DNA of 64,000 nt from assembly GCA_041389025.1 (NCBI GenBank), contig JAWKSP010000001.1:128002-192001 (forward strand), read 5' to 3'. Position numbers and translations under genes: made by a program. Each line of letters opens with the position of its first letter. Position 1 is the first letter of the stretch. Of the stretch, positions 6,120-62,064 are shown one piece after another. This DNA comes from Minisyncoccota bacterium. Lineage in GTDB: Bacteria; Patescibacteriota; Minisyncoccia; Phycocordibacterales; UBA918. Below the pieces are notes generated by a model, which made no database searches, was not told where the DNA came from, and saw only the letters and a program-made list of their open reading frames with translations.

Positions 6120-6132
6120 AGAAAATATAAAA

Positions 6133-6321
6133 TTAAACTCGACCAGTAATAAACTGAATGCCTAGATTGAAAATGTAATCAAAAGCACCCAAAAATAGTG
6201 ACACTACTAAAGATATAACAATCACTAAAACTGTATAGAAAAAAGCTTGCTTTTGGGACGGCCAGCTAACCTGTTTCATTTCAGCGGCAGTATCGCGTAA
6301 ATAGTTACTAAAGTTGCTCAT
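6133..6321 (-). CDS. secE: Preprotein translocase subunit SecE, start taken at internal ATG
   Basis: 62 aa from MSNFSNYLRDTAAEMKQVSWPS with single C-terminal TM helix; canonical secE-nusG-rplK order. Confidence 0.7.
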   Translation of the reverse strand: MSNFSNYLRDTAAEMKQVSWPSQKQAFFYTVLVIVISLVVSLFLGAFDYIFNLGIQFITGRV

Positions 6322-6475
6322 ATAAATAATCTTACAAAATAAAAACGCCTCTGTGCGAATTGAACACATTATACTCCTGTTTTAAATATTGTCAAAAATC
6401 TTGCAAAACAACCTTAAACTCTAGCCAAATGTTTATATATGAATACAAACAAATTAAGTCCTAAGCTTAAAAGAA

Positions 6476-38244: not shown

Positions 38245-39198
38245 ATGAAAATATTTAAAAATAGCTGGTTATTAGGGTTAATTACCATAAGCCTACCATT
38301 TACTACCTCAGCCGCTTGGCTGGACAACAAACCAGTCAAAGATATTCCTGTACCAGTTTTGTTTGGAATAGATTTAAACAAACTAATTCCTGATTTTGGT
38401 GACTCACGTGGTGGAGGGACTCGATTACACGAAGGTCAAGATATGCGCGCACCTAAAGGGACTCCGATTATCTCACCAACAGATGCTATAGTCAGAAAAA
38501 CCGGAGAAGAAAATAGCGCAGGTAAATTTGTCTATACCGATAACCCAGGTGGAGAGAATTTCAGATATATGCACTTAGATACAATAGAAGTTAAAGTTGG
38601 TGATAAGTTAAAAGCTGGAGACTTAATCGGTACTGTCGGCGACACAGGAAATGCACCAGATGGTGTTTATCATTTACACTTTGAGATAAGAAAAGACCGA
38701 AAAGCGACCGATCCTTTTCCTAGACTCGTAGACAGCTATAACCTAAAAGAAAAAATGGCTTTACTTGATAGTATTTTTGACGATATAAAAGATGAAGATG
38801 GACTAGCAGAAATTTTGGTAAGTAATTTTTCAGACCTGTTTCAGATTGCTCTAAATGAAAATTATGATTTACCCAGAGAACTAGAAAAAGAGTTAACTAA
38901 CCAGAAAATTACCTCCACAGCAGATTTATTAAAAACACTAAATGAATTAATAGACAAAATCCCTATATTACTAAACATGGAATTAAATATTGGTGATGAA
39001 AACATTGCTGTTTCCCTTCTACAAACCTATTTAATATTTTCAAGTAATGGCCCAAACAAAGAACTATTAGCCAACACTGGAGCTACTGGTTACTTTGGAC
39101 CTTTAACCAAAGACGCCATGGTTGAATATCAAAAAAATAATAGCTTACCTCTCACTGGCATCTACGACCAAAACACTCGTTTAAAAATGATTAAATAA
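38245..39198 (+). CDS. Secreted M23-family peptidoglycan endopeptidase with C-terminal peptidoglycan-binding-like domain
   Basis: HEGQDM (HxxxD) and YHLHFEIR (HxH) M23 motifs; signal peptide. Confidence 0.75.
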   Translation: MKIFKNSWLLGLITISLPFTTSAAWLDNKPVKDIPVPVLFGIDLNKLIPDFGDSRGGGTRLHEGQDMRAPKGTPIISPTDAIVRKTGEENSAGKFVYTDNPGGENFRYMHLDTIEVKVGDKLKAGDLIGTVGDTGNAPDGVYHLHFEIRKDRKATDPFPRLVDSYNLKEKMALLDSIFDDIKDEDGLAEILVSNFSDLFQIALNENYDLPRELEKELTNQKITSTADLLKTLNELIDKIPILLNMELNIGDENIAVSLLQTYLIFSSNGPNKELLANTGATGYFGPLTKDAMVEYQKNNSLPLTGIYDQNTRLKMIK

Positions 39199-44052: not shown

Positions 44053-44072
44053 ACTAAAAAAATTAATAACCC

Positions 44073-45451: not shown

Positions 45452-45772
45452 ATGACTGAGAAAATTGGCCTAACAAAAATCAAACAAAATCTTAACTCCT
45501 CTGAGGCGGATATGATTTTAACTGATATTTTCAAACTACTTGGTGACAAAAACCGTTATCGGATTATGAAAATAATATCTGAAGATAAGGAGCTTTGTGT
45601 TGGGGACTTAGCTAAGATTCTCGACACTTCCATGTCGGCTGTATCCCAACATTTACGCATATTGGAAATGTCCGGACTAATTGAAGGTAATAGACGCGGG
45701 CAGTCGATGTGTTACAAACCTCTCCTCACCCACCCTAAAATTAAAGAAGTGTTAAAATTAATGAAACAATAA
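45452..45772 (+). CDS. ArsR/SmtB-family transcriptional regulator
   Basis: LCVGDLAKILDTSMSAVSQHLRILEMSGLI wHTH. Confidence 0.7.
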   Translation: MTEKIGLTKIKQNLNSSEADMILTDIFKLLGDKNRYRIMKIISEDKELCVGDLAKILDTSMSAVSQHLRILEMSGLIEGNRRGQSMCYKPLLTHPKIKEVLKLMKQ

Positions 45773-45804
45773 TTCTTATAATAAGGATAATTTTAAATTA
45801 CATT

Positions 45805-45863
45805 AAAACAAGAACATAATAAGACCGCGAGCAAAGCTCGCGGTCTTATTATGTTCTTGTTTT
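45805..45863. terminator. 28-bp perfect palindrome AAAACAAGAACATAATAAGACCGCGAGC-AAA-GCTCGCGGTCTTATTATGTTCTTGTTTT between convergent arsR-like and creD
   Basis: Read from sequence. Confidence 0.6.
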
Positions 45864-45870
45864 AATAATA

Positions 45871-47214
45871 CTACCGACCACCAACCGAATACCAATCCAA
45901 ATTCCTAGTGATATACATTACTATCGCCAATACTCCAAACAACAGTACCGAACCAAACAATAATGAATACTGATCCAATTGCAGAAGAATGTACAAGTAA
46001 CCATAGAGAGCGGTAAGCAAAGCTAATATAGACAACGCACGCTTCTTTAACTTAAGTACACTAAAACAGTAGCCAGTGATAAGTAACGTTGTCGCCAAAG
46101 CCGCTGTCACATAAGCCGCCACAAACCCAATAATTTCAGCAAACGAAAGCAAGAGTAGATAGAAGAGAGCGATCGCCAACCCTACCAGCAAGTACTGCAC
46201 TGGATGGATACGTAGCCCAGCCAATATCTCATACATAAAGAAAGTTAAGAACGTCAAACTGATAAAAAGAATTGAGTACTTGGTTGAACGATCAACCATA
46301 GTATAAAAATCAACTTCTTGATAAAGACCAACCCCAAATGTTTTAGACAAAAGAACATCAGGATTTATTGTTGCCGAATTACCAATCCACGATTGTGGTA
46401 AATTCTTTCCGTAAGAAGTGATTTTCCAAGTAGCTGAAAAACCATTTTCATTAATACTTCTCTCCTCCGGTAAAAATTCACCAATGAAACTAGGCGTATT
46501 CCAATCAGAATTTATGGTCACATCAGTGTTTTCTCCGAGTGGCAAAAAAGATATTTCTCTACTTCCTTTCAGCGGGAAATCAAAGGAAAAAGGATAACTA
46601 GTCTGACCTGGATCAATCTTCACCTCCGCATGCACACCACTATTATTAATAATTGAAAAGTTCGAAGCCGGTAGTAGCTGGTATTTATTTTCATTTAGGA
46701 CAAGGTCAAACATTGACGATATTCCTCTCGGATCAGAAACATTAATAGAGACAACTGCCTTATCCCAAAGTATTCTAGAATCTGCACCCACCTCTTTATT
46801 GATATTTGATAAATCAAAATTACCAGCCCCGCTAACGGTCGTGGTGTAGACCGGAGTATCATACACTCCTCTAGTTAAAAGTTTGGCGGCAACCTGACTG
46901 TCATAAGAAAGATTTTGTGGCAACAAAGTCAAAATAACTGTACTCACACCCCTTTCTCCAGTAGGTGTTATGCTCGTCTTTTCAACCGGAATAGTCAGCA
47001 CCGGACCAGCAATAGTCTGTGGCCGACTCCACTGTTCTGAGATTTGCGCCGAAACTTCCCTTTGTCTATCTTCCCTATCTTGAATCACTCCCCAGACAAA
47101 CTGAGTAGCGATCCAAGCCACCCCCATCAAAATAGCTAAGGTGAGTAATTTTTTAGTTAATCCATTATCACCCCTACGGTCATTTGTATTATTTACATTT
47201 TCGTTCATATTCAT
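45871..47214 (-). CDS. creD: CreD-family inner-membrane protein
   Basis: 447 aa; C-terminal HPVQYLLVGLAIALFYLLLLSFAE... block typical of CreD. Confidence 0.7.
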   Translation of the reverse strand: MNMNENVNNTNDRRGDNGLTKKLLTLAILMGVAWIATQFVWGVIQDREDRQREVSAQISEQWSRPQTIAGPVLTIPVEKTSITPTGERGVSTVILTLLPQNLSYDSQVAAKLLTRGVYDTPVYTTTVSGAGNFDLSNINKEVGADSRILWDKAVVSINVSDPRGISSMFDLVLNENKYQLLPASNFSIINNSGVHAEVKIDPGQTSYPFSFDFPLKGSREISFLPLGENTDVTINSDWNTPSFIGEFLPEERSINENGFSATWKITSYGKNLPQSWIGNSATINPDVLLSKTFGVGLYQEVDFYTMVDRSTKYSILFISLTFLTFFMYEILAGLRIHPVQYLLVGLAIALFYLLLLSFAEIIGFVAAYVTAALATTLLITGYCFSVLKLKKRALSILALLTALYGYLYILLQLDQYSLLFGSVLLFGVLAIVMYITRNLDWYSVGGR

Positions 47215-47289
47215 AGTCGTTCATTATTTAAGGTTTTTATACCTTTCTATTACTAAACTATACCCAAATTAGTTACTGACTAAATTTGT

Positions 47290-47625
47290 GATTATTTTTT
47301 TGATTGATTGTATCGTACTTATTATCTATCCTCGTACCACCATAAGGTTGGTAGTTTAGTAACTGATTTAAGTATCCGGTTTGATCGGTAACTTTGGTAG
47401 TAGAGTTTAAGTGATCTTGGTGGTTGTAGTATGTCTTGGGTGCTGGTGTATCTGCTTCTATGGTAGCTACTAGAGTATGGTTGGTGTAGATGTGTTTGGT
47501 AATGTTCCCATTCTTTAGTTCGTAGTTGGAGAATGGGTAGAGGGTGGTGTTGGTACCGGTGGTTTTGGAGACTCTTTGACCGGTGTGGTCGTAGGTGTAG
47601 GTGGTGGTGTTAGATACCTCGATTT
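47290..47625 (-). repeat. Truncated Rhs core-repeat remnant (no toxin tip), 4th copy of the 3' core homology
   Basis: About 95% identical to 54980-55270, 49460-49750, 51670-51950. Confidence 0.75.
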
Positions 47626-48011
47626 TGTTTTATTGGTCTATGTACATGTACACCACCTCCTACATAAGGATCATAATACTTTTCACACTCAAAGCATTTC
47701 CATCCACCTCTACTATTCCAACGTTGAAGATGTATATGTTTTTTTGAACCATCAAGACATTTTTGACAAAACGGCACATTATCTCCCTTCTTCCAATACA
47801 ACCCGTTCTTTAAGACAAAATCATGTTTAGTAGCAAGTTCCAACTTCAGAGCCTGATTTTCTTCTTTTAGAGCAATATTCTCATCTTTAATTGAAACAAT
47901 AAACTCACGCAAGCTTACTATCTTTTCTTGCAGATCAAGAGTTGCTGATTTTTTAACCAGCTCGGTGATACTTTCCAATATTGACTTTGCTTCTGAAAAA
48001 TTCAAATTCAT
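47610..48011 (-). CDS. Coiled-coil + zinc-ribbon hypothetical protein
   Basis: CQKC...CFEC pairs. Confidence 0.35.
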   Translation of the reverse strand: MNLNFSEAKSILESITELVKKSATLDLQEKIVSLREFIVSIKDENIALKEENQALKLELATKHDFVLKNGLYWKKGDNVPFCQKCLDGSKKHIHLQRWNSRGGWKCFECEKYYDPYVGGGVHVHRPIKQNRGI

Positions 48012-48055
48012 GTTTTTATATTTTACTATCTACATATATTTACCTCAACTTAACA

Positions 48056-48352
48056 CTACCACTTTAACCTTTCTTTCAACTCCAAAACCCTATCTGAAAG
48101 TAACAAAAAAATATCATTTTTAAATTCAGTATTACAACCAAAGGATTCAATAAAAATACCAGTGAGTTTTTCTGTGAAAATTACTTTTTCATTATCCTCC
48201 TTTAGCAAAGAGACTATTTTGATTACCTCATCATAATACTCATCACCCGGTGCCCCGCCTCCGATTAAGTTGACTGGATCTAATTCATTGACAATCTCGT
48301 GAATGTTTTTAAATACAATTTTATATAAATTCATACAACACAATTGAATCAA
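48056..48352 (-). CDS. Hypothetical small protein, candidate immunity protein for orphan CT at 48653..49396
   Basis: Position only. Confidence 0.35.
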   Translation of the reverse strand: MIQLCCMNLYKIVFKNIHEIVNELDPVNLIGGGAPGDEYYDEVIKIVSLLKEDNEKVIFTEKLTGIFIESFGCNTEFKNDIFLLLSDRVLELKERLKW

Positions 48353-48711
48353 TCGCTTTCAAACTTTGCAAACTCATGCATTTTAATCTTTGTTAAAAAC
48401 TCAACAAGGTTGTCGATGTCCGATTTTGAATCTTTTGAAGAGATTTCATCCTTCAATCGTTTAAGTTCTTCAACAACAAAGGTAATTTGAATTTCATTGA
48501 AATATGTATCCTGATTAGGGTCTACACATCTCAAGAGTGGATATTTTGATAAATCACGTGCATCATTCCACATTTCTTCAATCAGGAAATCATACCTATT
48601 ACCTACTTCTAATCTGTTTTGGTTTTCATCTATTTTTACTAATTTCATACGTTTATTTTTCTTTATTATTGTAACGAGGCTTGCCCGGATGCGCTGTAAC
48701 CAAATCACCAT
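48349..48711 (-). CDS. Hypothetical small protein, candidate immunity protein
   Basis: Immediately downstream of orphan CT, overlapping stop/start. Confidence 0.4.
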   Translation of the reverse strand: MVIWLQRIRASLVTIIKKNKRMKLVKIDENQNRLEVGNRYDFLIEEMWNDARDLSKYPLLRCVDPNQDTYFNEIQITFVVEELKRLKDEISSKDSKSDIDNLVEFLTKIKMHEFAKFESD

Positions 48712-49805
48712 TTTTTCTTGTAACCACTGTTACAACATTAGTGCCTTTACCAGATACCGCATCATATCCTATAGAACGATCCAACTCTACAGATCTAACT
48801 ATATTTCCATTTTTCTGTAAGACACCCTTTTGTCCATTAACGCTTTTTATTAGACTTGTAATTTCATCGGCGTTATTAAAATAACTATCTTTACCAAGAC
48901 TAAACTCACTTCCACCTATAGTATGTCTATTTAATACATGATTTTTCCTACTCTGAGAAATACTTACATTCGAAGCAGTTCTTAATGAACCAGTAGTAAC
49001 ATTCTTCACAACCTTCCCGCCACTCATCGACATACCTACCACAAAAGCTTTCTCTCCCACAGAAGCATTTGGATCTGCTAAGGTAGCTACACTGTCTCCC
49101 ACACTGCTACTTAGTAAAGCGCTATTTGTTATCGCAATACTGGCCGCTATTATTTCAGGTGCATAAATAACCAATGGTGCGGCAGCAAACCAAAAGAACT
49201 CCCCACCCTCATCAACATACTTAATCGGATTATTCGCCGTATAACTATAAGTGTTTTGTGACTGTGGACTCTTTAGATAATAACCTAATTTATTGTTGGT
49301 TTTATCTTGGACTGTTTTCCAATCTCCTAGAGCTAACGACACCGGATCCTGAGAAGTGAAGCGACCAGTATCCCCTGACTGGTAGCGTGCACCCATATAG
49401 GAAAGACTAGTCTCCTCATCATAATCATGCCCTGTATACCTCTTAGTTTGATTGATTGTATCGTACTTATTATCTATCCTCGTACCACCATAAGGTTGGT
49501 AGTTTAGTAACTGATTTAAGTATCCGGTTTGATCGGTAACTTTGGTAGTAGAGTTTAAGTGATCTTGGTGGTTGTAGTATGTCTTGGGGGCTGGTGTATC
49601 TGCTTCTATGGTAGCGACTAGAGTATGGTTGGTGTAGATGTGTTTGGTAATGTTTCCATTCTTTAGTTCGTAGTTGGAGAATGGGTAGAGGGTGGTGTTG
49701 GTACCGGTGGTTTTGGAGACTCTTTGACCGGTGTGGTCGTAGGTGTATGAAGTGGTTATTCCTGCTTTTGTGGACTCAGTTAGTTCGTTGCGGTGGTTCC
49801 AGGTG
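48653..49805 (-). pseudogene. Orphan Rhs C-terminal cassette: ~480-bp core-repeat fragment (49325-49805) + distinct toxin tip ORF 48653..49396 (begins MGARYQSGDTGRFTSQDPVSLALG)
   Basis: Core fragment nearly identical to 54855-55325 of the main rhs gene; tip contains ...NHVLNRHTIGG... putative nuclease-like motif. Confidence 0.7.
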
Positions 49806-49809
49806 TTCC

Positions 49810-50433
49810 TTATTTTTTATCTAACACGCTCTCACATTCACCACCAACACCTATATAATTTAACTCATTATTATTTTCATTGTCAGAAATAAACCAATAT
49901 CTTATAAAACCAACAAAAAAACTTACAGACAATAACAAAATACTAACTATTAGATGAGGAATTCCAATAAAAATAATAAAATAATAATTAGTAATAAATG
50001 TTATAAAGAAAATAACGATCAAAATATCAGTTATTTTGTGAAAAAATACTGATTTATAATAATTTTCTTTGAGTATTCTATTTACTTCCATTTTATCTAA
50101 CGAAATAGTTGTATTTTTTGAAATAAAATTTATACGCTTTGTGGACAAAGTATAAGTAACTATCGCACCAAGCAAAAAAGGAAACACCCAAATCAAAAAA
50201 TATTTTACAGCTTCATCTTTAACAATAGGCATCAGAGTAAATAGTCCTGCAATAGTAATTAACACACCTTGTCTAAGAGTAAAATCAGATAGATATCTTT
50301 CAATACGAATATTTTCCTCAGCATAAGATACAGAGTCATTATCATCAATCAATTCACCTAATGCGTTTAAACTTAATACACCAACTTCATGTTGAAGCTT
50401 ATTTATCTTAATCATTAATTCTTCCTTGTTCAT
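49810..50433 (-). CDS. Hypothetical multi-TM protein (candidate immunity for CT at 50888..51427)
   Basis: 207 aa, 4 TM. Confidence 0.35.
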   Translation of the reverse strand: MNKEELMIKINKLQHEVGVLSLNALGELIDDNDSVSYAEENIRIERYLSDFTLRQGVLITIAGLFTLMPIVKDEAVKYFLIWVFPFLLGAIVTYTLSTKRINFISKNTTISLDKMEVNRILKENYYKSVFFHKITDILIVIFFITFITNYYFIIFIGIPHLIVSILLLSVSFFVGFIRYWFISDNENNNELNYIGVGGECESVLDKK

Positions 50434-50483
50434 ACACCCAGGTTATACGTTTACATTATAATCTACAAAAATTATAGTTTATA

Positions 50484-50882
50484 TTATTTACCATAAACTA
50501 AAGTGTTGAATTTAGACCAAACACTATCTTGAGAACCATTTTCTATATGCTTCTGACACCATACGTAAGGGAATATCGTCTTTCCATTAGTCAATGTTAC
50601 AGGAAAAGTATCTTTGCCAAATTCTTGATGATCTCTAGACATGTCTATAAAAAAACCTTTTTTTTCAATAACTCTTGAGATATACATAGCCATTTCGAGA
50701 GCAATACCATTTAACCCTTCATTGTTGCCAGTTTGCATAAAATCATCATGGACAAGAGATAATATTTCATCAACATGTTTTATAGACTCTACTGAATAAT
50801 CAAGCTTATAGTCAAAATCTTTACCAATTTCAACAGCTAATTCCACTAACTTCTCTCTCATTTTTTGTAATTCTTTTTCCAT
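50484..50882 (-). CDS. Hypothetical protein (candidate immunity)
   Basis: 132 aa directly downstream of orphan CT. Confidence 0.4.
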   Translation of the reverse strand: MEKELQKMREKLVELAVEIGKDFDYKLDYSVESIKHVDEILSLVHDDFMQTGNNEGLNGIALEMAMYISRVIEKKGFFIDMSRDHQEFGKDTFPVTLTNGKTIFPYVWCQKHIENGSQDSVWSKFNTLVYGK

Positions 50883-50887
50883 AATTA

Positions 50888-51955
50888 TTACTGGTTTAAT
50901 TCCTTTCTTGTTACTTTTGCACCTGTGTTATCTAGAGATTGTTGTAGTGGCTTTGATAATTTTGTAGTAGGTCTGGTAATTAATTCCATTGTGTAGCCGT
51001 TTTGTTTTGAGTATTCAGTAAAAGCACGTAGCTGAGCTGTATTTGATTGATACTTTACATTTTTTACTTCTTGCAACGTTTTTGTTTGATGATTCAAACC
51101 ATCAGGTATTCGTTGCTTACCATTTCCTTTAATCAAATCTGGTATCTTCTCTGTATTTTTTTGTATACCAGACACAACTTCACCTATAGACCCTTTTCTC
51201 CTTACGTCAGCCAACTTATCGGCAACATTTCCAACAACCTTCCCTCCCGCCTTCACTTCTCCCGCAGGACTAGCAAACAAAGCAACAGCGATAGCTTTGT
51301 CTCCCAAAGAAGCATTCGGGTCAGAAACAGTTTGTCCGGTAGTATATGCATCATAAGCTGTTAACCCAGCCATCACTGCAGCTATAGCTAACGGGATAAT
51401 GTTTCCGTTAGGATCTGAAATAATCATTGGATTATTTCTAGCGTAACTATAAGTATTAAACTGCTGAGGATCTCTAAGGAATACATCTAACGGTCGACTG
51501 TATGTATCTTCCCAACTTTGTGCACCTAGGTCAAGGTTAGCTTGGTCTTGACTGGTAAATCTGGCAGTCTGTCCATTTTCATAACGACTACCTAGATAGT
51601 TTAATCCAGTCTCTTCATCTTTGGTTTCACCTAGATACTGACGGTGTTGGTTTATGCTTCCATACTGTTCATCAATTCTAGTGTCTCCAAACGGTTGATA
51701 GCTTAGTAACTGATTAAGGTAACCATCTTTGTCGGTGACAGCATTGGTAGAGTTTAAGTGATCTTGGTGGTTGTAGTATGTCTTGGGGGCTGGTGTATCT
51801 GCTTCTATGGTAGCGACTAGAGTATGGTTGGTGTAGATGTGTTTGGTAATGTTTCCATTCTTTAGTTCATAGTTGGAGAATGGGTAGAGGGTGGTGTTGG
51901 TACCGGTGGTTTTGGAGACTCTTTGACCGGTGTGGTCATAGGTGTATTTTACTTA
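50888..51955 (-). pseudogene. Orphan Rhs C-terminal cassette: core fragment (51660-51955) + distinct toxin tip ORF 50888..51427
   Basis: Core homology to main rhs; tip unrelated to the other two tips. Confidence 0.65.
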
Positions 51956-51957
51956 TA

Positions 51958-52398
51958 TTACTTAATATCGGTAACTGGCTTCACTTCAACATTTTTACCA
52001 GTAAACTCAGTGTTTACACGACGAGTAAGACGACTATCGTCAGTGAACACAACAATTTGCTCTGTCGGATCAAACAGTCTCTCAATCTTTTGGATAGTAA
52101 ACATATCCAATACAGTATGAATAGTGGCAAGAATAGAAATATCACCAAAGCCAGTCATGTTAAAAAATGATCTACCTCCATGGATATTAAGCATACGTTT
52201 ATAGTGATTTAAGTATAACACTTCGTCAAATTCATCAATAACAACAATCTCTGATATTCCTACCGGAATACTTTGACTATGAACAAGCTGTGCCAACTCA
52301 ACCTCTTCGATTACATCAGGCACTAAATAATAATCCTCAGTCAGAGAGATTTGTCTATCAAAAATATAAGAAACGCCATTTGTGTCAATTAAATTCAT
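51958..52398 (-). CDS. PIN-domain protein (VapC-like nuclease)
   Basis: MNLIDTNGVSYIF (Asp5), ...IVVFTDDSRL (Asp cluster); 4-nt ATGA overlap with upstream gene. Confidence 0.6.
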   Translation of the reverse strand: MNLIDTNGVSYIFDRQISLTEDYYLVPDVIEEVELAQLVHSQSIPVGISEIVVIDEFDEVLYLNHYKRMLNIHGGRSFFNMTGFGDISILATIHTVLDMFTIQKIERLFDPTEQIVVFTDDSRLTRRVNTEFTGKNVEVKPVTDIK

Positions 52399-53592
52399 AT
52401 ACCAAGTTCTTTTCGATACTTACGAAACCCTTTCTTATTTACAGCACCGAAAATCAAGTACTGTGCTTGTGTACTTGATAGAGTCTTTGAACGGATACCA
52501 GTATTTATTGTCTTAAATGATTTACTACCACAAAACTTTCTCACTGACGTAGAAATATTTGGTGACCTAGCATGATTTTTTGTCTTCTTAGATATAAATG
52601 GAGGAGGTTTTAAAGTTTCAAATTCTTTCTTAGTCAGAATTCCTCTCATACGAAGCGTAATAATGAGTGCCAATGGAGATACTTTAAACTTCAAAGCAAG
52701 TTGGTCTCTCTTTGTAGTAGTAACTTCTCGTCCACGTAGTTTTTCAGTCTCATTCACAGGCATAAGTAGTTCAGCTGTAATGGCGTGGATTCGTGCTGAC
52801 ATTTTTTGTGATTTCATAAGCTTTGCTTTGAAATTTTTCTCAAGTACATAGTCGTATTGATCAAGCCCAATTACCACCAAAAGATAAACAAGTGTGTAAA
52901 TCTGACGACTCTCAACTTCGTCAGGATTAACTTCACTCGGAAGAAAAACAAACGGAATTTTGTCATCTTTGATAGCAAAACCGCTAGTGTTTTTATACAC
53001 ATCATTACCAACCACTTGGTGATTAGGTAGAATCTTGTTTGTCAGTACACCACGAGAGACATTGACTGATTTTTTGATTAACTTTTTCAATCAGATATTC
53101 GAGAGCCGTTCCCTTTCCTGTATAATTCCAGAATTTATCTCGGTCTATTTCAAAGTGTGTCAGGATTTTATTGACTGCATTTTGCAGTCTTAGTCCCTTA
53201 AGTGAACCACAAAAAGGATTTAGTGGTAACGTACTAACTGAAGTGATGTAGTTCTGCTGACGAATAAGTCGATCAATGATGCGTTTAGAAGTAACATCGC
53301 CAGCACCTTTACGCTTCGCAACAAGCTTTCTTGACACCTTATGCTGACGCTGTGCCTCAATATGATTAATGGTGGTATTAAGATTAGCTGGTGTCAGGAG
53401 AAACATCTGCCACGGAATAAGAATTTTCTCGCTTTCCTCCCTAAGTTCGTACAGTTCTATGCTGCCAGTAGCGAACGCCTTTTGAAATACTGGTCTACTT
53501 ACTAGCTCCTCTTCTGGATACAGCTTAAGAACACGTTCGACAACGCCATCATAAATCTCTGTTGAACTTGTTCCATTAATAACAACCCACAT
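52395..53592 (-). CDS. Hypothetical ~410-aa protein apparently split by a frameshift at an A6 run (ORFs 53023..53592 and 52395..53090)
   Basis: The two ORFs overlap by 68 nt in different frames across CAAAAAATCAG; C-terminal part has a weak ImmA/IrrE-like helix (SPLALIITLRMRGIL). Confidence 0.4.
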
Positions 53593-53751: not shown

Positions 53752-54219
53752 TTATCTGGTAGAATTCACTAACTTTGTAATTTTTAATTCAACTGAACCT
53801 GCCCCCATCATATTATCTTGAGGATACATCTTTAACTCAGAATTTTCATTTAAGTCATACTTAACTTCCTTAACAAACTTCATTGTTACGTCATCATAGT
53901 AAGATAAAAAAATCAAACCAGCCTCATCGTCTATTCTCATCAATGGCGGCATAGTCCATTTTTCTCTATCCCAGTTTTCAATCTTTTTAACCACTGACCA
54001 AGAATTCTCAATTAAACCTAAATCACCAAATTTTCCAACTAGAATTGCTTTTTCTGGTTCTAATTTACTTAAATCAGCGTCTGGTTGAAAAAAGTAACCA
54101 AAGATTTTACCTTTTCTATCCATTCTAGCTATAACCCCATATCCATTTCTTCCTGAATCATCACGAAGTGGAACACTAACTATGTCTCCTTCCGAATAAT
54201 TAATTTTTGCATCTTTCAT
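53752..54219 (-). CDS. Hypothetical protein, candidate cognate immunity protein for the Rhs C-terminal toxin
   Basis: 155 aa, starts 19 nt after rhs stop. Confidence 0.45.
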   Translation of the reverse strand: MKDAKINYSEGDIVSVPLRDDSGRNGYGVIARMDRKGKIFGYFFQPDADLSKLEPEKAILVGKFGDLGLIENSWSVVKKIENWDREKWTMPPLMRIDDEAGLIFLSYYDDVTMKFVKEVKYDLNENSELKMYPQDNMMGAGSVELKITKLVNSTR

Positions 54220-54237
54220 ATAGCTAATATATCAGAT

Positions 54238-57200
54238 TTAATTAGCCGCGTCTTCGTATTCTTTCTTACGAGGATTCTGGTTACTAATCGGTTGCTGCTT
54301 GTTCAAGCCTCCATTTTCATATTTAGCCTCTGGATGTTGATCATAGATCTTTTGTTCTTGACCTCGTTGCGTTGCGTAATCATCTGTTCTTCTGTTAACC
54401 TCAAAATCATAATCTCTTGTTTCAGGATTTCGCGCATGTTCGTATTCACGTCTCTCAAGATTATTGGTTCTACCAGTTCTTACAACCTTTCCTGTTTCAC
54501 TGTCGATGAGTTTATATGTTCCACCCACAGCTTCAACAGCCTCATCACTATACTGAGCAACCCTCCTTAATGATCCAACTCCTACAACTCCAGGCACAAG
54601 TGCTCCACCAGCATCAAGAGCCAGGTTAGTTGCTTCACCCCTTACATCACCACCAGTCAGAATTGCTTCACCTAGTTTATAAGCACTGTAAGCCGTGAAT
54701 CCAACATCAACAACGATATCTAACCATTCTCCATTTTTATCTTGATATTTGAGTGGGTTGTTAGCTGTGTAACTATAAGTATTTTGGGCTTGTGGGTTTT
54801 TTAGATAGATATCTACTGTTGAATCCATTTTATCTCTCATCAGCCCAGGACTACCCAAAGCTAACGACACCGGATCCTGAGAAGTGAAGCGACCAGTATC
54901 CCCTGACTGGTAGCGTGCACCCATATAGGAAAGACTAGTCTCCTCATCATAATCATGCCCTGTATACCTCTTAGTTTGATTGATTGTATCGTACTTATTA
55001 TCTATCCTCGTACCACCATAAGGTTGGTAGTTTAGTAACTGATTTAAGTATCCGGTTTGATCGGTAACTTTGGTAGTAGAGTTTAAGTGATCTTGGTGGT
55101 TGTAGTATGTCTTGGGGGCTGGTGTATCTGCTTCTATGGTAGCGACTAGAGTATGGTTGGTGTAGATGTGTTTGGTAATGTTTCCATTCTTTAGTTCATA
55201 GTTGGAGAATGGGTAGAGGGTGGTGTTGGTACCGGTGGTTTTGGAGACTCTTTGACCGGTGTGGTCATAGGTGTATGAAGTGGTTATTCCTGCTTTTGTG
55301 GACTCAGTTAGTTCGTTGCGGTAGTTCCAGGTATTAGTAGTACTACCGTCTGTTAGGAGGTTACCGTTTTGGTCATAGGTGTGGGTGGTACCTCCGATGG
55401 CGGTGGCAGCGTGTGGGTTGGCGTAGTTGGTACCAGTGTCTCCTTGGTAGGAGTATGTTCCTTGATCTGATTTAGTAAGGATGTTTCCTATACTGTTGTA
55501 TGAGTAGGTTTCACTGTATGGGGTGGTGCTGGCGCCCGTGGTTGAGGCGGAAGTCAGGCGATATAGATCATCGTAGGTGTAGGTAATAGTACCAGCAGAG
55601 TCTGTCTCACTATTGTCTATTATTTGAGTAATGTTACCGACAGTGTCGTAGGTGTAGGTGAGATTTTGGACATTCTCAACAAAGATTGGAAGAGTTGGAG
55701 TGGTGGTACTGGTGGTAGTACCGGCCGCTAATGAGAAAGTAGCCGTCTCAGTACTCCACTCTCCTTCTGTGTCACTGTCATCCCAGAATTTTATACGCCA
55801 GTGGTAGGTGGTGCTGGAAGCTAGTGGTAAACCACCATATGTGATGTCGGCAGTTCTGTTTCCTGCTGTTACTTGACTGACTAGCGCAGTCTTTGTACTA
55901 TCCCAAATATTGTTGGTGAAAGCAGTTGAAGTTGATACTTGGAGTTGGTAATGAGTTGCCGTATCTCCTGTATCTGGGTCATTGTATATAGCTGTGAATT
56001 CTGGTGTGTTGTCGGTGATATCTGTCGGATTGGTTTGTCCTTCTGTTTCAAGAAGTGTTGGTGCAGTTGGGGTGGCGTTGGTTGGTGGTGGAGGTATATT
56101 TCCTGTTTCATAAGTTGCATATATTGAATGTAAGGCGTGACCAGCATCAGTACACGATGGACTGTTTGGTGCTAAAAAACTATTAGTATGGTCAAATATT
56201 TCATGTACACCATAAGCAAAATCTAGCTTAATATCAGGATAACCCTTAGACACTATGGTAAGAGCATAGTTTGTATTTGGATTAATTGACACAGGTATTT
56301 CAAAAACACTTTCCGTCCAAGCAAAATTTGTTGGAATATTTGCAGACACACCAACTCCATCAGACACAATTCCACAGGTATTTGTATCTATTACAACTCC
56401 TTTGAATTTATCATTGCTGTAATACTTTCTTGTAAAAAAATTTATACCAGTGACAGTAGTAGCGTCTGACGGACTAGTGTATACATTGCCAATCATCCAA
56501 TTATGTCCAACATAATCCGTATAGGCACCAACAGAAGTATTGCCAAAAGTCGGATCCACAACCACTGGATAAGTTGCTGTTTCTAAGAAGTTTTGTGGGA
56601 CAGTAACAGAGAGCATTCCCTCTTTATAATCTAATTCTCCCCATACCTCTTCACCATTGGCGTCTTTAATTTTTGGTCTATATATATGATAGACTTTTCC
56701 GGTAGCATAATTTATCTCTCCTTTTACATGATTCTTCTTAGTCTTGTGGTATACCGCATAACTACCAACTATATTTTCTGCTCGCTCCAGGGTTACTCTA
56801 CCACCCTCATCAATACACTTCGTTTCCGTACAAATCTCTCCTTCTCCAAACAACCCTTCAAGTGAAACTGGTTGATAAAAGAAATCAAGATCCTCATATC
56901 CATCAATTTCAAACTCAAATACATTGGTGTCCGGTTTTTCGTCCAAAATCACTTCGATTTCAAACCCTCCATCTTCCATTTGCTCAGTGGCAGGCAACGG
57001 ATAAGCATGTATTCTTTCTTTCTTGTCTTTGTCTTTCCATTCAACTACATCAGTTCCTAAAATATTTTCCCCTTGCCCTTTTACTTTGTTGTATCTAACA
57101 CCAAGATCAATTTCTCCTTTCCATTTGTGAAGACGTACCTCGGGATGGGTTTTCTTTAGAATAACTTTATCTTTGTTCTTATTATTTTGTATTAAAAATA

Positions 57201-60200
57201 AGCTATCATCACCTTCAATGTACTTACTTTTCTTATCTGAGTTATTAATTTTATCTATTACATCTAAAATTATGGATGTTTTTGTCTCTGGTAAGAAAGT
57301 CCTATTTGTATTAGGTTCATGTACAGATACAGTATAATTCTCGTCAGTGGAGGTAGATATTATTTCGATACTTTCTGACACACCAATAGTTGTAATCAAC
57401 TCTTCAACGTACATATCTTCATCAGTAACCACTGACCCAGTTCCAGCCGAAGTGGTAGTAGTTGCAGTATCAGATAGTGATGTAGTAATGTCGGAAGAAG
57501 TAGCGATTGGCTCATCCACTGTTTCTACCACCATCTCTTCTTCGGTTGACGGAGCTATAGAGTCAGTAGTCAAAGCATCTAGCTCAGCCTCTATGGTAGC
57601 CAACTCTTCACCCCCATTACCGGTACCGTAAGTACTGGTAGCAGTAGTGAGGATATTTTTCAATCGGTACAGTTCGGTCGCGTCATAAGTACGAGTAGTT
57701 ATAGAGCCGTTGCCGTATTCGATATTTTCCATCTGACCATGCGGCCCATAATCAATATCACTGACGATATTTGCAAAAGTTCCCCCACTCTCTCTTTGTT
57801 CCACTTTGTCTACCTGACCACCTTTATTAAAGATGTACTTAACTTCTGAGTTATCTGGATAAGTAATGAGTGTTTGGTTGCCTTGGCGATCATACTGGTA
57901 GCTAGTGGTATAGGTATTACTATTTATTGTTTTAGCTTCTGAAGCCAAAAGATTATTTGGAGTATAAGTGTAGTTAGTGGTAGCCGAAGAATTAACGGCG
58001 GTACAAAGCTGTCCCACGCCACCCGTACAAGTGTCGTAGGTATAAGTAATTTCTGTACCAGCTTGTCCGGTGTAGTTCTCGGTCAACTGACGATTGAGAG
58101 CGTCGTAGGTGTAGTTGGTAGTCTGACTCTCTGGATCAGTCTTGCTGGTTAGGTTGCCGGCATTATCGTAAGCAAAAGTCCAAGTACCAAAAGTACTATC
58201 ACTCGGTGCATGCAAGTCCTCCAAGCTAGTACGCCGACCAAGCGAGTCATAACTTATATTTCGCACATTACCTTCCGCATCAGTTATCTTGGTCAAGTTA
58301 CCAAGATTATTCCAAGTGTAGCCTGTGGTATATGAATTGGTTCCTTCGTTTTCAGTCACGGCTACCAGTCGACCAAAAGCATCATATTGGAATTTCTTAT
58401 CGTTGCCAGCGGTATCGGTAACAATTTCTTTCCATTGGTCATAAACTGTTTCAGTTGTACCGACCACAGTCTCCACTGAAGACACCCTGCCAACCGGATC
58501 ATAGTTGAAAATACTTAAAAGATTATTGTTGGTAGTAGGTACACTTCTTGCTGAACCGGTATCAAAATACCGTAAAGACTCTTTGGCCAAAAGACCATTA
58601 TCACCATAAACGTAATCTTTCACTACATACTGATTACTTTCTTCCGCTTCTTGTCTTTCTTGTATCTTTCGACCAAAACCATCCAAGAATGTGTATGAAT
58701 TTTTAACCAAACTGCTGTTTAGATAATTTTTCTTTTGCACGCTGACACTGCCAACCGTATCGGTGTAGACATACTCAGTTTGTACTACCGGAGCGCCGGT
58801 CTGTGGGTCAGGTAATGTAACAGTAAGTGGTCGGCCAAATCCATCGTAAGTAGTGGCAAAAATATTTCCATTAGCGTCGGTAGTAGTCGCTACTTGCCCG
58901 GAAGAATAATCATACTCATACTGTGTAGTCTGGTTGAGAGAGTTGGTGACACTGGTCGGATATAAGTTGTATGCATCGTAAGTGTAGTTAGTGGTGTTAC
59001 CGTTTGGATCAGTCTCGGCTGTTACTAGCCCTAGACTGTTGTATGTCCATTGTTTGTTTATATAGTTGCTACCACCTAACCAATTTTCTTCTTTGGTCTT
59101 ATTACCTAGAGTAACCGTACCAAGTGGTTGGTTATCGTAGTAGAAGAGAGACTCTTGGACTTTGGTGCCGGAGTTGTCGGTCAAGGTTTGTTTGGATGGT
59201 AGTACCATACCGCTAGCATTAGTAGCATACTCAATAGTCGTTACTTGTTTGTCGGTACCAGTATCTGAGAAAGTGCCATCAGAATTACCATTCACCTCTC
59301 CCCACTCGGTTTTTGTGAGAAGTGAGCCGTTGGTGTTGTTGTATGTATAGCTGTTGGCCGAAGCTTTTTTGTCGCTATCACCATCGTAATCAAGCTTAAG
59401 GTCACTCTCTAATTTTAAAAATATATTTCCACCACTAAGTGAAGTGGTAGAAAAATTGTTATGAGAGAGTGCATAAATATTATCTGAAAAATCGTTTACT
59501 TCACTACGATACACTTGGCCGATCAAAAACTCGCCATCTACCCTCTCTTCAGATGTGGTTGAGACCCCGTTTCCTTGATGGTAATAATTTACTTCTTTGT
59601 TTAAACTGGTGATCTTAGAGACTTCACCAAAACCAGAAAACTTGCGTTCGTATATATTATCTGCATCGTAATAAAAATCAGCTTTTTTATAATCATAAAC
59701 CTCAATTTGTACATCACCAAAATTTGAACTCATCTCCTTACTGGTTACCACCACGGGGTTAAATCTTGGTTTTCCAATTTCTTGATAATTCACCCGTCCA
59801 TCTTCCAAATAACCACTATATGAAACTTCAATATTTCCAGATTTTGAAGAAGAAATAAGAGAAAGTTGATCGGGAACAATTTGATCATTTAATTTTACCG
59901 AACCACCACTTGTATGCACTTCATATAAATCATTGAATTCCAAATCCAAGATATCAACAATAGTATCTCCGTCTATATCTACAAAAGCTTTTCCATAGTT
60001 ATGACCACTATAACTATGAGTTAAGAAAAAAGGTAAAGAATAACTTTCTTTTTTCCAACCATTTCCGGTATTAATGTATGTTTCAGCAAACTGCTGACCA
60101 CTATAATACAGTGATTTAACTATATCGGGTAATCTATCACCATTAATATCAACTAAATTATAACCTGTATTAGGAGAACCAGTACTTTTTATGTAAAAAT

Positions 60201-62064
60201 CCACAGGTAAAATCCAATCGGAACTGGTAGCCCAACCATTTCCGGTATTAAGATACACGATTCTTTCGTCTATTTCTGGATTAAATTCTTTTCTATCATC
60301 CTTATAACCTCTAACAGCATCAATTAACCCATCACCGTTAACATCTATCAATCTAGTACCCATATCTGAAAAACTTTTCCATCCGTATCTACTAGATTTA
60401 TTCCCTAAAGGAACCGGAAAATATAATTCTGAATCTTCCCAACCCTGACCGTTATTTAATGCTACTGATGATCTTATATTTTCAGGAACAGAACCATTCT
60501 CAAGCGAAATAAACTCAGAGGTTATGATGTCTGGTAACCCATCACCGTTCACATCTGCGAATGTTCTTGCTGAGTTTGCAAACTTAGAATCAGGATAATA
60601 CCACCAAGTAAAAGACAATAATCCAGTCCAATTTGTATCTTTTACAAAACCACTGCCATTGTTTATATAGACACCGTATTGCTCCAAAGGATACCAAGAA
60701 GGGTATTCATAGTATGAAGAAGGTCCGTCGTAGGCTACTACTATGTCGTCTAACCCATCACCGTTCACATCTATCAATCTAGTGCCCATATCGATATATT
60801 GTGTAGGGTTACTTGTGTTGTCTTTTTCTCTAATCGAGAAAGGCACCTTGATATCATCCCAACTCCAATCAACATCATAATCCCATTGTCCGCCACCTTT
60901 ATTTATATGTACTCTTCTAACCAAATGATTCTCCCATGGATATTGATCACGATCAAAGAAGTGGTAGTATCTAACAACATCAATTAATCCGTCTCCATTT
61001 AAATCGCCAAACCTTACTCCGGTATCTTTAGAATTTAAAGGTTCCGGAAAGTTTTCATATTCCGTACTATTCGACCAATCAGGCAATTTAACACCACCAT
61101 ACTCAAAAATAGTTTCCGGTAAAATAACCTCACCTGATTCTCCGTAACCTTTCTCAGTTATACCTAACAACAAAATTCTACTCTCATTTATACCTTCACC
61201 AAATCGTAAATCATAGCTTCTTACTTTTTCATCATTAACGTAAACGCCTATACCTGAAACGTTGTATTTTCTTGTGACTTTAAAGTTTTTATCATATGAA
61301 GTAAATGGAGTTGTGCTTGTCGCCAATGAAAACTTGACCTCGAAAATATCACTATAAGAAATACTTTCTGGATATATCGAGCCGTTACTTTTTACATATG
61401 TATAATTTGTAACATTTCCGTCTTTATCTTCCACTTTTTCTAGCATCCATTTAGCAACCTCGTTTTCGTTACCAGTATTACTTTGACGAGAATTGTCAGT
61501 TAGACCAAAGTAATATTTATTTCCACTTTTATCTCTAACCTCCCAAACATTATCCAGAAAAATATAGGATAAAAAATCTCCTCTCTCTATTCTAGACACA
61601 AATGTGGTTGAGTCGTTAGTAGGAAACAATTCCCCTGATAAGGACGAATAAAAAGTTGATGACGCAATATACAATTTATCAACACCTCTTTTGTTTATAG
61701 TTTCAATAAAAGGTATAGAGGACTTCCAACCATAACCAAACACATCAACGTCACTTGCTTGCTGATTATTGTATGTAAGTTTTAACATTGGTGTATATTG
61801 ACCTCTCCCTTCAGGAAAAGAAAAGTCATATTTATATTCAAAAGCACCGGTAGATAAATTTATCGTTCCACTATTTAGAAAACTTATATCTCTTGACGGT
61901 ATATTGGTAACAAAACCATCTTCATTTGTGTACACGTCAGCTGATGCAAAATTTTCTAAAGGTATAGCAAAAAATAAAAACACAAGCATAAGGCTTGTGT
62001 TTTTATAAAGAAAATTAAAAAACTTACTTTCGGTTTTTGGTTTGGTTAAACAGAAAAAATTCAT
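54238..62064 (-). CDS. Rhs/YD-repeat polymorphic toxin (2608 aa): signal peptide, FG-GAP/VCBS-like Ca-binding repeats, YD repeats, P/T-rich linker + FN3-like domain, Rhs core ending ...GRFTSQDPVSLALG, C-terminal GIY-YIG-like nuclease tip
   Basis: Repeated xDxNGDGLxDxV motifs; dozens of YD repeats (YTYDxxGNL...); core ...YMGARYQSGDTGRFTSQDPV; tip GTYKLIDSETGKVVRTGRTNNLERREYEH fits GIY-x10-YIG...R...E/H pattern. Confidence 0.85.
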   Translation of the reverse strand: MNFFCLTKPKTESKFFNFLYKNTSLMLVFLFFAIPLENFASADVYTNEDGFVTNIPSRDISFLNSGTINLSTGAFEYKYDFSFPEGRGQYTPMLKLTYNNQQASDVDVFGYGWKSSIPFIETINKRGVDKLYIASSTFYSSLSGELFPTNDSTTFVSRIERGDFLSYIFLDNVWEVRDKSGNKYYFGLTDNSRQSNTGNENEVAKWMLEKVEDKDGNVTNYTYVKSNGSIYPESISYSDIFEVKFSLATSTTPFTSYDKNFKVTRKYNVSGIGVYVNDEKVRSYDLRFGEGINESRILLLGITEKGYGESGEVILPETIFEYGGVKLPDWSNSTEYENFPEPLNSKDTGVRFGDLNGDGLIDVVRYYHFFDRDQYPWENHLVRRVHINKGGGQWDYDVDWSWDDIKVPFSIREKDNTSNPTQYIDMGTRLIDVNGDGLDDIVVAYDGPSSYYEYPSWYPLEQYGVYINNGSGFVKDTNWTGLLSFTWWYYPDSKFANSARTFADVNGDGLPDIITSEFISLENGSVPENIRSSVALNNGQGWEDSELYFPVPLGNKSSRYGWKSFSDMGTRLIDVNGDGLIDAVRGYKDDRKEFNPEIDERIVYLNTGNGWATSSDWILPVDFYIKSTGSPNTGYNLVDINGDRLPDIVKSLYYSGQQFAETYINTGNGWKKESYSLPFFLTHSYSGHNYGKAFVDIDGDTIVDILDLEFNDLYEVHTSGGSVKLNDQIVPDQLSLISSSKSGNIEVSYSGYLEDGRVNYQEIGKPRFNPVVVTSKEMSSNFGDVQIEVYDYKKADFYYDADNIYERKFSGFGEVSKITSLNKEVNYYHQGNGVSTTSEERVDGEFLIGQVYRSEVNDFSDNIYALSHNNFSTTSLSGGNIFLKLESDLKLDYDGDSDKKASANSYTYNNTNGSLLTKTEWGEVNGNSDGTFSDTGTDKQVTTIEYATNASGMVLPSKQTLTDNSGTKVQESLFYYDNQPLGTVTLGNKTKEENWLGGSNYINKQWTYNSLGLVTAETDPNGNTTNYTYDAYNLYPTSVTNSLNQTTQYEYDYSSGQVATTTDANGNIFATTYDGFGRPLTVTLPDPQTGAPVVQTEYVYTDTVGSVSVQKKNYLNSSLVKNSYTFLDGFGRKIQERQEAEESNQYVVKDYVYGDNGLLAKESLRYFDTGSARSVPTTNNNLLSIFNYDPVGRVSSVETVVGTTETVYDQWKEIVTDTAGNDKKFQYDAFGRLVAVTENEGTNSYTTGYTWNNLGNLTKITDAEGNVRNISYDSLGRRTSLEDLHAPSDSTFGTWTFAYDNAGNLTSKTDPESQTTNYTYDALNRQLTENYTGQAGTEITYTYDTCTGGVGQLCTAVNSSATTNYTYTPNNLLASEAKTINSNTYTTSYQYDRQGNQTLITYPDNSEVKYIFNKGGQVDKVEQRESGGTFANIVSDIDYGPHGQMENIEYGNGSITTRTYDATELYRLKNILTTATSTYGTGNGGEELATIEAELDALTTDSIAPSTEEEMVVETVDEPIATSSDITTSLSDTATTTTSAGTGSVVTDEDMYVEELITTIGVSESIEIISTSTDENYTVSVHEPNTNRTFLPETKTSIILDVIDKINNSDKKSKYIEGDDSLFLIQNNKNKDKVILKKTHPEVRLHKWKGEIDLGVRYNKVKGQGENILGTDVVEWKDKDKKERIHAYPLPATEQMEDGGFEIEVILDEKPDTNVFEFEIDGYEDLDFFYQPVSLEGLFGEGEICTETKCIDEGGRVTLERAENIVGSYAVYHKTKKNHVKGEINYATGKVYHIYRPKIKDANGEEVWGELDYKEGMLSVTVPQNFLETATYPVVVDPTFGNTSVGAYTDYVGHNWMIGNVYTSPSDATTVTGINFFTRKYYSNDKFKGVVIDTNTCGIVSDGVGVSANIPTNFAWTESVFEIPVSINPNTNYALTIVSKGYPDIKLDFAYGVHEIFDHTNSFLAPNSPSCTDAGHALHSIYATYETGNIPPPPTNATPTAPTLLETEGQTNPTDITDNTPEFTAIYNDPDTGDTATHYQLQVSTSTAFTNNIWDSTKTALVSQVTAGNRTADITYGGLPLASSTTYHWRIKFWDDSDTEGEWSTETATFSLAAGTTTSTTTPTLPIFVENVQNLTYTYDTVGNITQIIDNSETDSAGTITYTYDDLYRLTSASTTGASTTPYSETYSYNSIGNILTKSDQGTYSYQGDTGTNYANPHAATAIGGTTHTYDQNGNLLTDGSTTNTWNYRNELTESTKAGITTSYTYDHTGQRVSKTTGTNTTLYPFSNYELKNGNITKHIYTNHTLVATIEADTPAPKTYYNHQDHLNSTTKVTDQTGYLNQLLNYQPYGGTRIDNKYDTINQTKRYTGHDYDEETSLSYMGARYQSGDTGRFTSQDPVSLALGSPGLMRDKMDSTVDIYLKNPQAQNTYSYTANNPLKYQDKNGEWLDIVVDVGFTAYSAYKLGEAILTGGDVRGEATNLALDAGGALVPGVVGVGSLRRVAQYSDEAVEAVGGTYKLIDSETGKVVRTGRTNNLERREYEHARNPETRDYDFEVNRRTDDYATQRGQEQKIYDQHPEAKYENGGLNKQQPISNQNPRKKEYEDAAN

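Follow-up and report, generated by a model that had tools for sequence, protein, structure and literature searches.

Does a genome of the Candidate Phyla Radiation (CPR, or Patescibacteria) keep a store of exchangeable toxin tips behind a large rhs gene? The question is raised by a stretch of 64,000 nucleotides (hereafter the window) from a Minisyncoccota bacterium, a metagenome-assembled genome (MAG) deposited as GCA_041389025.1 (contig JAWKSP010000001.1, positions 128,002 to 192,001), in which a full-length rhs gene is followed by further copies of its own core 3' end. Orphan Rhs cassettes are a textbook means of storing and swapping toxin/immunity specificities. We read the locus as an rhs polymorphic-toxin gene with a downstream array of displaced orphan rhs-CT (C-terminal toxin)/immunity cassettes, here numbered orphans 1 to 3 in order of distance from the main gene, and we put the probability of this reading at roughly 0.85. 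A first-pass annotation, made from the letters of the DNA, had already proposed that the region is such an array, and this identification is supported by the core domain, the toxin tips and the adjacency of immunity genes.

The locus comprises a full-length rhs gene with core and variable tip, downstream core fragments that lack a start, tips that differ from one another, and tips that are found on carriers elsewhere. Three genes, the main one and orphans 1 and 2, all score above the cut-off of the Rhs-associated core model TIGR03696 and bear three different toxin domains. Behind each tip stands a candidate immunity gene, recognized by family for the main gene (Imm26), by conserved adjacency for orphan 2 and by position for orphan 1.

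Core repeats behind the main rhs gene

The main rhs gene occupies 54238..62064 on the minus strand and encodes 2608 aa; the segment of it that recurs downstream, at 54859..55335 (minus strand), is the 3' end of its core. When positions 44000-64000 were compared with themselves by blastn, this core end was found in four same-strand copies, the main gene's own included, with E-values among the copies of 1e-101 to 0, and an independent repeat search returned the same four-member family at spacings of 2148, 2199 and 3329 nt. Both searches bear out the four copies described at first pass. By blastn, the stub of orphan 1 (51663-51947, minus strand) matches main positions 54992-55276 at 90.2% over 285 nt (E 3e-109), that of orphan 2 (49331-49807, minus) matches 54859-55335 at 99.2% over 477 nt (E 0), and that of orphan 3 (47299-47608, minus) matches 54975-55284 at 97.4% over 310 nt (E 6e-150); orphans 3 and 2 match each other (47299-47608 versus 49447-49756) at 98.1% over 310 nt. 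The boundaries first proposed for the copies hold to within about 10 nt, except for the high end of orphan 3, which had been set at 47625 and lies at 47608, and the near-identity to the main gene claimed for 49325-49805 is that of orphan 2.

A block of 201 nt, main positions 55076-55276, is common to all four copies at 97-100% identity. Its counterpart in orphan 1, bases 51747-51947, is identical at 201 of 201 positions, and below 51747 the identity falls at once to 65/101 (64%) and lower, a drop to which a Fisher test assigns p = 5e-20. The 90% of orphan 1 is, as the alignment presents it, that of a mosaic with a sharp recombination breakpoint at 51747/51746. Past the breakpoint, the sequence of orphan 1 is that of another core allele (…STNA.TD.DGYLN…PFGDTRI…DQANLDLGAQSWE…FLRDPQQ…ARNNP). 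Between orphan 2 and the main gene, blastn shows four mismatches over the 477 nt and the alignment, which spans one base more, shows five, and orphan 3 has two C variants in common with orphan 2 plus three private substitutions.

All array genes lie on one strand, and each stub starts 1-10 nt past the stop codon of the preceding open reading frame (ORF): that of orphan 1 starts 10 nt past the stop of ORF 51958..52398, the stop of ORF 49810..50433 lies 2 nt ahead of that of orphan 2, and the stop of ORF 47610..48011 lies 1 nt ahead of that of orphan 3. The 5' end point is identical in orphans 1 and 3 (…|TACACCTA…, YTYDHTGQ), and the stub of orphan 2 begins at NTWNHRNEL. Between 47750 and 50750, the orphan tips and small ORFs have 26-33% GC, as against 41-48% for the Rhs core stubs, and GC skew changes sign at every stub; the low GC of the tips and small ORFs fits, as a matter of composition, cassettes of foreign or fast-evolving origin.

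The toxin tips and their cassettes

The main protein matches the Pfam families RHS_repeat (1.4e-33), FG-GAP_3 (2.8e-14), SpvB (1e-8) and Ig_Rha78A_N (3e-14). From its N-terminus it runs through SpvB and FG-GAP repeats to RHS/YD repeats, which contain an Ig/fn3-like insert, and then to the Rhs-associated core (TIGR03696, 50.3 bits versus a cut-off of 32.5) and a C-terminal tip. Its nearest solved chains in a PDB sequence search are antibacterial Rhs and teneurin-like cocoons. The N-terminus, MNFF...LMLVFLFFAIPLENFASA, is probably a Sec signal peptide, a call made by eye. Near codons 20-30, in this signal-peptide region of the 5' coding part, lies a 33-nt hairpin followed by a T-run (61974-62006), which could be chance or an attenuator-like element. 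The core ends in ...YMGARYQSGDTGRFTSQDPVSLALG...NTYSYTANNPLKYQDKNGEW, with the motif variant DPVSL...NNPLKYQDKNGEW, after which the 161-aa tip follows (54238..54723, minus). This tip is a putative GIY-YIG-like nuclease. An annotated RHS protein encoded on a plasmid of Methylosinus trichosporium ends in a homologue of it (52% over 71 aa, E 6e-13), and no PDB sequence matches it.

The immunity candidate of the main tip, ORF 53752..54219 (minus), starts 18 nt past the stop of the main gene, matches Pfam Imm26 (5.3e-7, 30.3 bits versus a cut-off of 23.3) and is named 'Imm26 family immunity protein' by NCBI (MEZ4103844.1). Three extra ORFs lie between it and orphan 1 on the same strand (53023..53592, 52395..53090 and 51958..52398), none with a Pfam or NCBIfam match. 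The first two share 68 nt and, to judge from this overlap, may represent one split gene; ORF 52395..53090 also has weak matches to phrog_2439 'transcriptional regulator' (1.8e-5) and PADLOC RmrA (1.5e-3). ORF 51958..52398 (146 aa) has no family match, and its N-terminus, MNLIDTNG..., is PIN-like by eye only. The three may be passengers of the main cassette that form a small module unrelated to it.

Orphan 1 is an open frame of 354 aa (50888..51952, minus) made up of core stub, linker and a Tox-REase-7 tip, and orphan 2 is one of 387 aa (48653..49816, minus) made up of core stub, linker and a C-terminal toxin domain. The second and third core copies had been described as fused to different tips in ORFs 50888..51427 and 48653..49396, the latter beginning MGARYQSGDTGRFTSQDPV; the tips do differ, and both ORFs exist on the minus strand, but they understate the orphans because the frames stay open upstream through the core stub, to 51952 and 49816. 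In orphan 1 there is no ATG, GTG or TTG ahead of codon 175 (the ATG at 51427), and in orphan 2 none ahead of codon 140 (the internal ATG at 49396). Since the frames lack a canonical start ahead of these ATGs, the NCBI models use ATT and ATA: the PGAP model of orphan 1 (P0158, 'putative toxin', 320 aa) starts at ATT 51850, and that of orphan 2 (MEZ4103837.1, 'RHS repeat-associated core domain-containing protein') at ATA 49813. TIGR03696 scores 46.2 bits in orphan 1 and 53.3 bits in orphan 2.

The tip of orphan 1 covers positions 1-84 of the 84 in the Tox-REase-7 profile (PF15649; 1.4e-23, 83.4 bits versus a cut-off of 25). A fragment from another organism (P0159) combines the orphan 1 core allele with the same REase-7 tip, and its Rhs core reaches about 80 aa further upstream than that of orphan 1. 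Two small ORFs stand behind this tip, in keeping with the one or two small genes per tip first counted. The immunity candidate (50484..50882, minus, 132 aa) starts 5 nt past the toxin stop and has, itself aside, just two homologues, each on a short contig; upstream of one of them (L016), a fragment end ...GATVVRKELKDD resembles the end of tip 1, a weak match at E 0.029. The second ORF (49810..50433, minus, 207 aa) is hydrophobic and membrane-protein-like, with no family match in Pfam, NCBIfam, PADLOC or PHROGs.

The tip of orphan 2 (48653-49198, minus) matches no Pfam family above cut-off; Ntox50 (PF15542) was considered and rejected (18.4 bits versus a cut-off of 22.2, E 0.0038). A word-indexed search for homologues found nothing, and an exhaustive HMMER search found 458. 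The domain is C-terminal in every listed case, on carriers of up to 3814 aa; some of the homologues sit in proteins of 1000-3800 aa, and the four large carriers that were scanned are CdiA (with TPS and haemagglutinin repeats; P0005, 3814 aa), Rhs and DUF6443 proteins. A C-terminal place on CdiA, Rhs and DUF6443 carriers is characteristic of polymorphic-toxin domains. A profile of 22 tip 2 sequences matches the MafB2 toxin 8hhj_B (E 1e-3). Structure prediction with AlphaFold2 from the single sequence was not usable (pLDDT 34), and the alignment-based model was used instead (pLDDT 91, pTM 0.83); its top two Foldseek matches are MafB2-CT (8hhj_B) and YxiD-CT (9v8i_B), at about 24% identity, a TM-score of about 0.45-0.5 and a Foldseek E-value of about 2e-3. 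Both are RNase toxins by experiment (PMC9970974, PMC12700104). Tip 2 keeps all invariant columns of its family, including two histidines in an HxxxxH region that aligns with these toxins. On the predicted model, tip 2 is closest to the MafB2-CT/YxiD-CT RNase-fold type, as a relative without a Pfam model, and is a putative RNase.

Directly behind tip 2, the putative immunity ORF 48349..48648 (minus, 99 aa from an internal Met; its longest version reaches 48711) starts 4 nt past the toxin stop. It is homologous to the ORF directly behind toxin P0004 (L009, 4263-4559; blastp 4.5e-10) and to that directly behind toxin P0002 (L011; blastp 5e-5). Conservation of this ORF behind related toxins on two independent contigs supports, by comparison of sequences, a cognate toxin/immunity pair. 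The immunity protein of tip 2 is unrelated, as far as tested, to MafI2 and YxxD. Two more ORFs complete the cassette on the minus strand, 48056..48352 (98 aa) and 47610..48011 (133 aa; phrog_1244, unknown function, 8.6e-7), so that three small genes, and not one or two, follow orphan 2. Scans of the small ORFs of the array for defence systems (PADLOC), PHROGs and NCBIfam families were essentially empty. The first-pass annotation had taken the small genes behind the tips for immunity candidates; conserved adjacency now favours this for orphan 2, while for orphan 1 position is the argument.

Orphan 3 (47299..47608, minus), rightly called a bare remnant at first pass, consists of 310 nt of core and lacks both tip and immunity gene. 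Its frame continues past ...DTINQ into KNNHKFSQ and a stop, and its end lies upstream of creD, 85 nt from the start codon.

Origin of the array

We propose that the array would have grown by serial C-terminal displacement. An incoming core 3' end with its tip and immunity gene would recombine into the resident core, and the old tip would be pushed downstream while keeping a stub of the resident core. In orphan 1 the crossover would have retained and duplicated the resident core up to alignment column 329, beyond which the old and incoming cassettes differ. A block identical at 201 of 201 positions that gives way abruptly to 64% would be the footprint of such a crossover. In support of this, the divergent half of the orphan 1 core is of the type found next to the same tip in another organism (P0159), which fits an origin by displacement. 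The retained immunity genes would guard the cell against neighbours that use those tips.

The core repeats would also permit the reverse path. If RecA-type recombination joined the main core to an orphan stub, 3329 bp (orphan 1) or 5528 bp (orphan 2) would be lost, and in simulated crossovers the products were in-frame chimeras of 2615 aa with tip 1 or 2627 aa with tip 2, every crossover being in frame; a simulated crossover with orphan 3 gave a tip-less protein of 2371 aa. In Salmonella, recombination between main gene and orphan leads to expression of the orphan toxin, and such fusions arise and are selected (PMC3967940). From this analogy we infer active tip switching, which is better grounded than at first pass because of the sharp breakpoint in orphan 1, the in-frame crossovers and the Salmonella precedent. 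A recent exchange between orphan 2 and the main core, which had been suggested from their near-identity, is plausible on the alignment, and the identical tracts could equally stem from duplication at cassette insertion or from later gene conversion.

Several observations weigh against the array reading or complicate it. Copies farther from the main gene are not less similar to it, orphan 2 (99%) being closer to it in sequence than the nearer orphan 1; a simple one-donor age order is insufficient to account for this, and either two core types among the donors or gene conversion must be invoked. The match of the main tip to Pfam GIY-YIG is below threshold (E 0.06). Behind the orphan 1 tip, the ORFs are candidate immunity genes by their position, and the array reading does not account for the extra ORFs of the main cassette and of both orphan cassettes. 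The main protein bears neither a PAAR nor a VgrG domain, and the window contains no TcA as a delivery partner. In a scan of JGI metagenomes the closest core reached 64% protein identity, and no near-identical sister was found.

The orphans might instead be a fossil record, inert leftovers that are never redeployed, with selection, if any, acting on the immunity genes as an immunity-gene array. We hold this to be possible, if somewhat unlikely. The orphans have neither start codons nor delivery regions, orphan 3 has already decayed to a stub, and a crossover with orphan 1 or 2 would remove the Imm26 gene of the main tip and expose the recombinant to its siblings; immunity-gene arrays retained after effector displacement are described in Vibrio cholerae (PMC5361080). 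Weighing against this are frames intact over 354 and 387 codons, a full-length domain in tip 1 and all invariant residues in tip 2. Moreover, tracts of 201-477 nt at 99-100% identity in direct orientation are an ample substrate for homologous recombination, all simulated crossovers stay in frame, and the Salmonella fusions were seen both to arise and to be selected. Expression of the orphans from internal starts (ATG 49396 and ATG 51427), as intracellular toxin-antitoxin-like modules with their immunity genes, strikes us as quite unlikely. It would draw on the in-frame ATG at the MGARYQ site of orphan 2, with GAGGAG about 15 nt upstream, on the ATG at the start of tip 1, and on the Salmonella rhs orphan, which is reported to act in this way (PMC7043789). 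Against it, the same ATG and its upstream sequence occur inside the main gene and are hence simply core sequence, the Shine-Dalgarno spacing is poor, and promoter-like sites number 41 versus 54 in shuffled sequence, by a scan that does not model CPR promoters; for promoters and terminators alike, the scan gave nothing above shuffled expectation within the array.

An assembly artefact, in which strain variants of one rhs 3' end were concatenated, would have refuted the repeats outright, and we regard it as very improbable. The source is a MAG, and repeats of 300-480 nt at 97-100% identity are of the kind that confuses short-read assemblers, but each copy has unique sequence on both sides, and the copies differ in substitutions and end points. 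The junctions of stop codon and mid-core, 1-10 nt apart, would exist in no single-tip strain, so no path through an assembly graph would create them; the source contig is 623 kb long, and independent CPR contigs (L019, L002) have the same layout. The junctions being unique, the artefact was rejected.

A bolder version of the displacement array, which we find doubtful, would treat the CPR core blocks (…NTWNYRNEL… and …YTYDHTGQRVSKTTGT…) as standard recombination handles flanking every cassette, an integron-like but homology-based exchange that arms a Sec-exported, T6SS (type VI secretion system)-independent, TcB/TcC-like cocoon. Whole units of stub, tip and immunity genes would then be swapped by double homologous recombination between the arrays of different lineages, and the cocoon would be used by an episymbiont against rival epibionts or its host. 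Hints in this direction are the stubs that start 1-10 nt past stops, the common 5' end of orphans 1 and 3, and unrelated CPR fragments that begin at the same motifs; these are equally expected from ordinary displacement combined with the deletion bias of small genomes.

Related loci and known systems

Among species-representative genomes, the nearest Rhs cores are in Saccharibacteria and Parcubacteria MAGs, at up to 71% protein identity. The loci of the closest relatives (L001, L004, L007) have a single core copy each, and the genes flanking the array in the window are absent from all relative loci that were fetched, so there is no synteny. Other CPR-type contigs resemble the array. A groundwater contig (L019; ERZ1292629, 123 kb, GC 36%) offers a second example of a main gene with an orphan: it carries, at 3169-12943, a full-length homologue of the main Rhs followed by one orphan core and tip, with a 74%-identical stub (9975-10253 versus 12027-12293); its source record has fragmented gene calls, and 100 N fall within the locus. 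In a Parcubacteria MAG (L002; JBJOQE010000063.1), a 129-nt core piece is present twice at 98% identity (3590-3718 and 7036-7164), one copy being a bare stub 3.4 kb downstream of the Rhs gene, like orphan 3. By eye, the Rhs tip of this locus is HNH-like and its intervening ORF 5655..6329 is IS200/Y1-type transposase-like. In a further locus (L021) the tip genes stand in tandem.

Many proteins of 300-580 aa from Patescibacteria sources join a YD-shell piece to varied toxin domains. One of 450 aa (P0160, from an ENA contig of 5.3 kb) is a mosaic at the protein level, with an orphan-1-type core followed by a main/orphan-2-type segment, and ends in an orphan-2-like linker (DPVSLALGDWKTVQDKT) that leads into a further, different toxin domain. 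This mosaic suggests, from its pattern of segments, frequent recombination in the core 3' end and linker within this gene pool. On a 121-kb contig (L017; ENA ERZ930069), positions 10001-12748 hold a stand-alone 408-aa Rhs-CT fragment followed by small ORFs, among them a CdiI_3 immunity gene; the fragment adjoins a type I restriction-modification system, and no full-length Rhs lies within 10 kb upstream.

Orphan rhs-CT/rhsI modules behind main rhs genes were described in Dickeya dadantii rhsC, Yersinia pseudotuberculosis and Salmonella Typhimurium LT2 (Poole 2011, PMC3150448; Koskiniemi 2014, PMC3967940). The likeness of our locus to these is extensive: a full-length rhs is followed by same-orientation fragments that each combine a 3' piece of core with a different tip and a small immunity ORF; initiation and export signals are missing from the fragments, as they are from the Salmonella orphan (PMC3967940); the orphan tips are also found on carriers elsewhere (CdiA, Rhs and DUF6443 proteins for tip 2, P0159 for tip 1); and core homology permits recombination that would arm the main gene with an orphan tip. 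In contrast to the enterobacterial loci, the host is a CPR MAG and not a proteobacterium, and there is no PAAR/VgrG/T6SS context, the main protein having a Sec-like N-terminus followed by SpvB and FG-GAP. The core end is DPVSL...NNPxxxxDxxGE and not the classic PxxxxDPxGL, two to four ORFs and not one follow each tip, and the stubs start within 10 nt of the preceding stop. A T6SS-delivered Rhs effector was rejected as a description of the main protein, in which Pfam found neither PAAR nor VgrG and whose flanking genes show no vgrG or T6SS linkage.

In Tc toxins, the TcB-TcC cocoon consists of SpvB, an FG-GAP propeller, an RHS shell and a hypervariable C-terminal toxin, and works with the TcA translocator. 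The main Rhs, one polypeptide of about 2600 aa, resembles a fusion of the two in its domain order (SpvB, FG-GAP, RHS repeats, Rhs core, variable tip), but no large TcA-like ORF lies in the window, its best PDB sequence matches are Rhs/teneurin-like rather than TcB or TcC, and the tips are, by their sequences, nuclease-type antibacterial domains with immunity genes. WapA of the Gram-positive bacteria Bacillus subtilis and Streptococcus suis (PMC12704120) is similar in being a T6SS-independent signal-peptide YD/Rhs protein with a polymorphic toxin end and a downstream immunity gene. Compared by architecture only, the SpvB/FG-GAP modules and the Ig/fn3 insert of the main Rhs are nevertheless more TcB-like, and Pfam finds no cell-wall-binding repeats in it. 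Within the CPR, a large Rhs/YD toxin (about 2500 aa) and an immunity gene next to it are mentioned in passing for the saccharibacterium 'T. rhizospherense' (Starr et al. 2018, PMC6031116), but as one toxin with one immunity gene and no orphan array described.

The orphan rhs-CT/rhsI array as such is known (Poole 2011; Koskiniemi 2014), and its occurrence in this phylum, without T6SS hallmarks, is new. An incomplete literature search found no description of orphan arrays in the CPR, and CPR Rhs toxins once (PMC6031116). Also new here are the breakpoint in orphan 1, the start-less state of the orphans, and a tip 2 family without a Pfam model but with a conserved immunity partner. Going by the 623-kb contig, the genome measures roughly 0.6+ Mb, of which about 15 kb is devoted to toxin warfare, and the logic of displacement and recombination appears to operate in the CPR without a T6SS. 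The locus offers two putative toxin/immunity pairs, one with a REase-7 DNase-type tip and one with a MafB2/YxiD-like RNase-type tip, as well as a tip 2 toxin family with 458 relatives and one new immunity family with conserved adjacency. Our understanding of Rhs systems is unchanged by these findings, which we consider a modest extension.

Surroundings of the array

The source contig measures 622,966 bp, and the NCBI locus tags run from R3B60_00950 onward. The locus is flanked by an aminotransferase gene and Ddl on one side and by CreD, ArsR, GDH and PGI on the other. A near-perfect palindrome of 65 nt (45802-45866), with a 20-bp stem and T-runs on both strands, separates the convergent arsR-like gene (45452..45772, plus) from creD (45871..47214, minus) and looks like a bidirectional terminator. 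Elsewhere, the window holds the type IV pilus gene PilM (32871..33971), secreted peptidoglycan hydrolase-like genes (NlpC/P60, 28189..30129; M23 with a peptidoglycan-binding domain, 38245..39198) and six scattered tRNA genes (14286-36773). Pilus, peptidoglycan hydrolase and scattered tRNA genes are typical of the genomes of CPR episymbionts.

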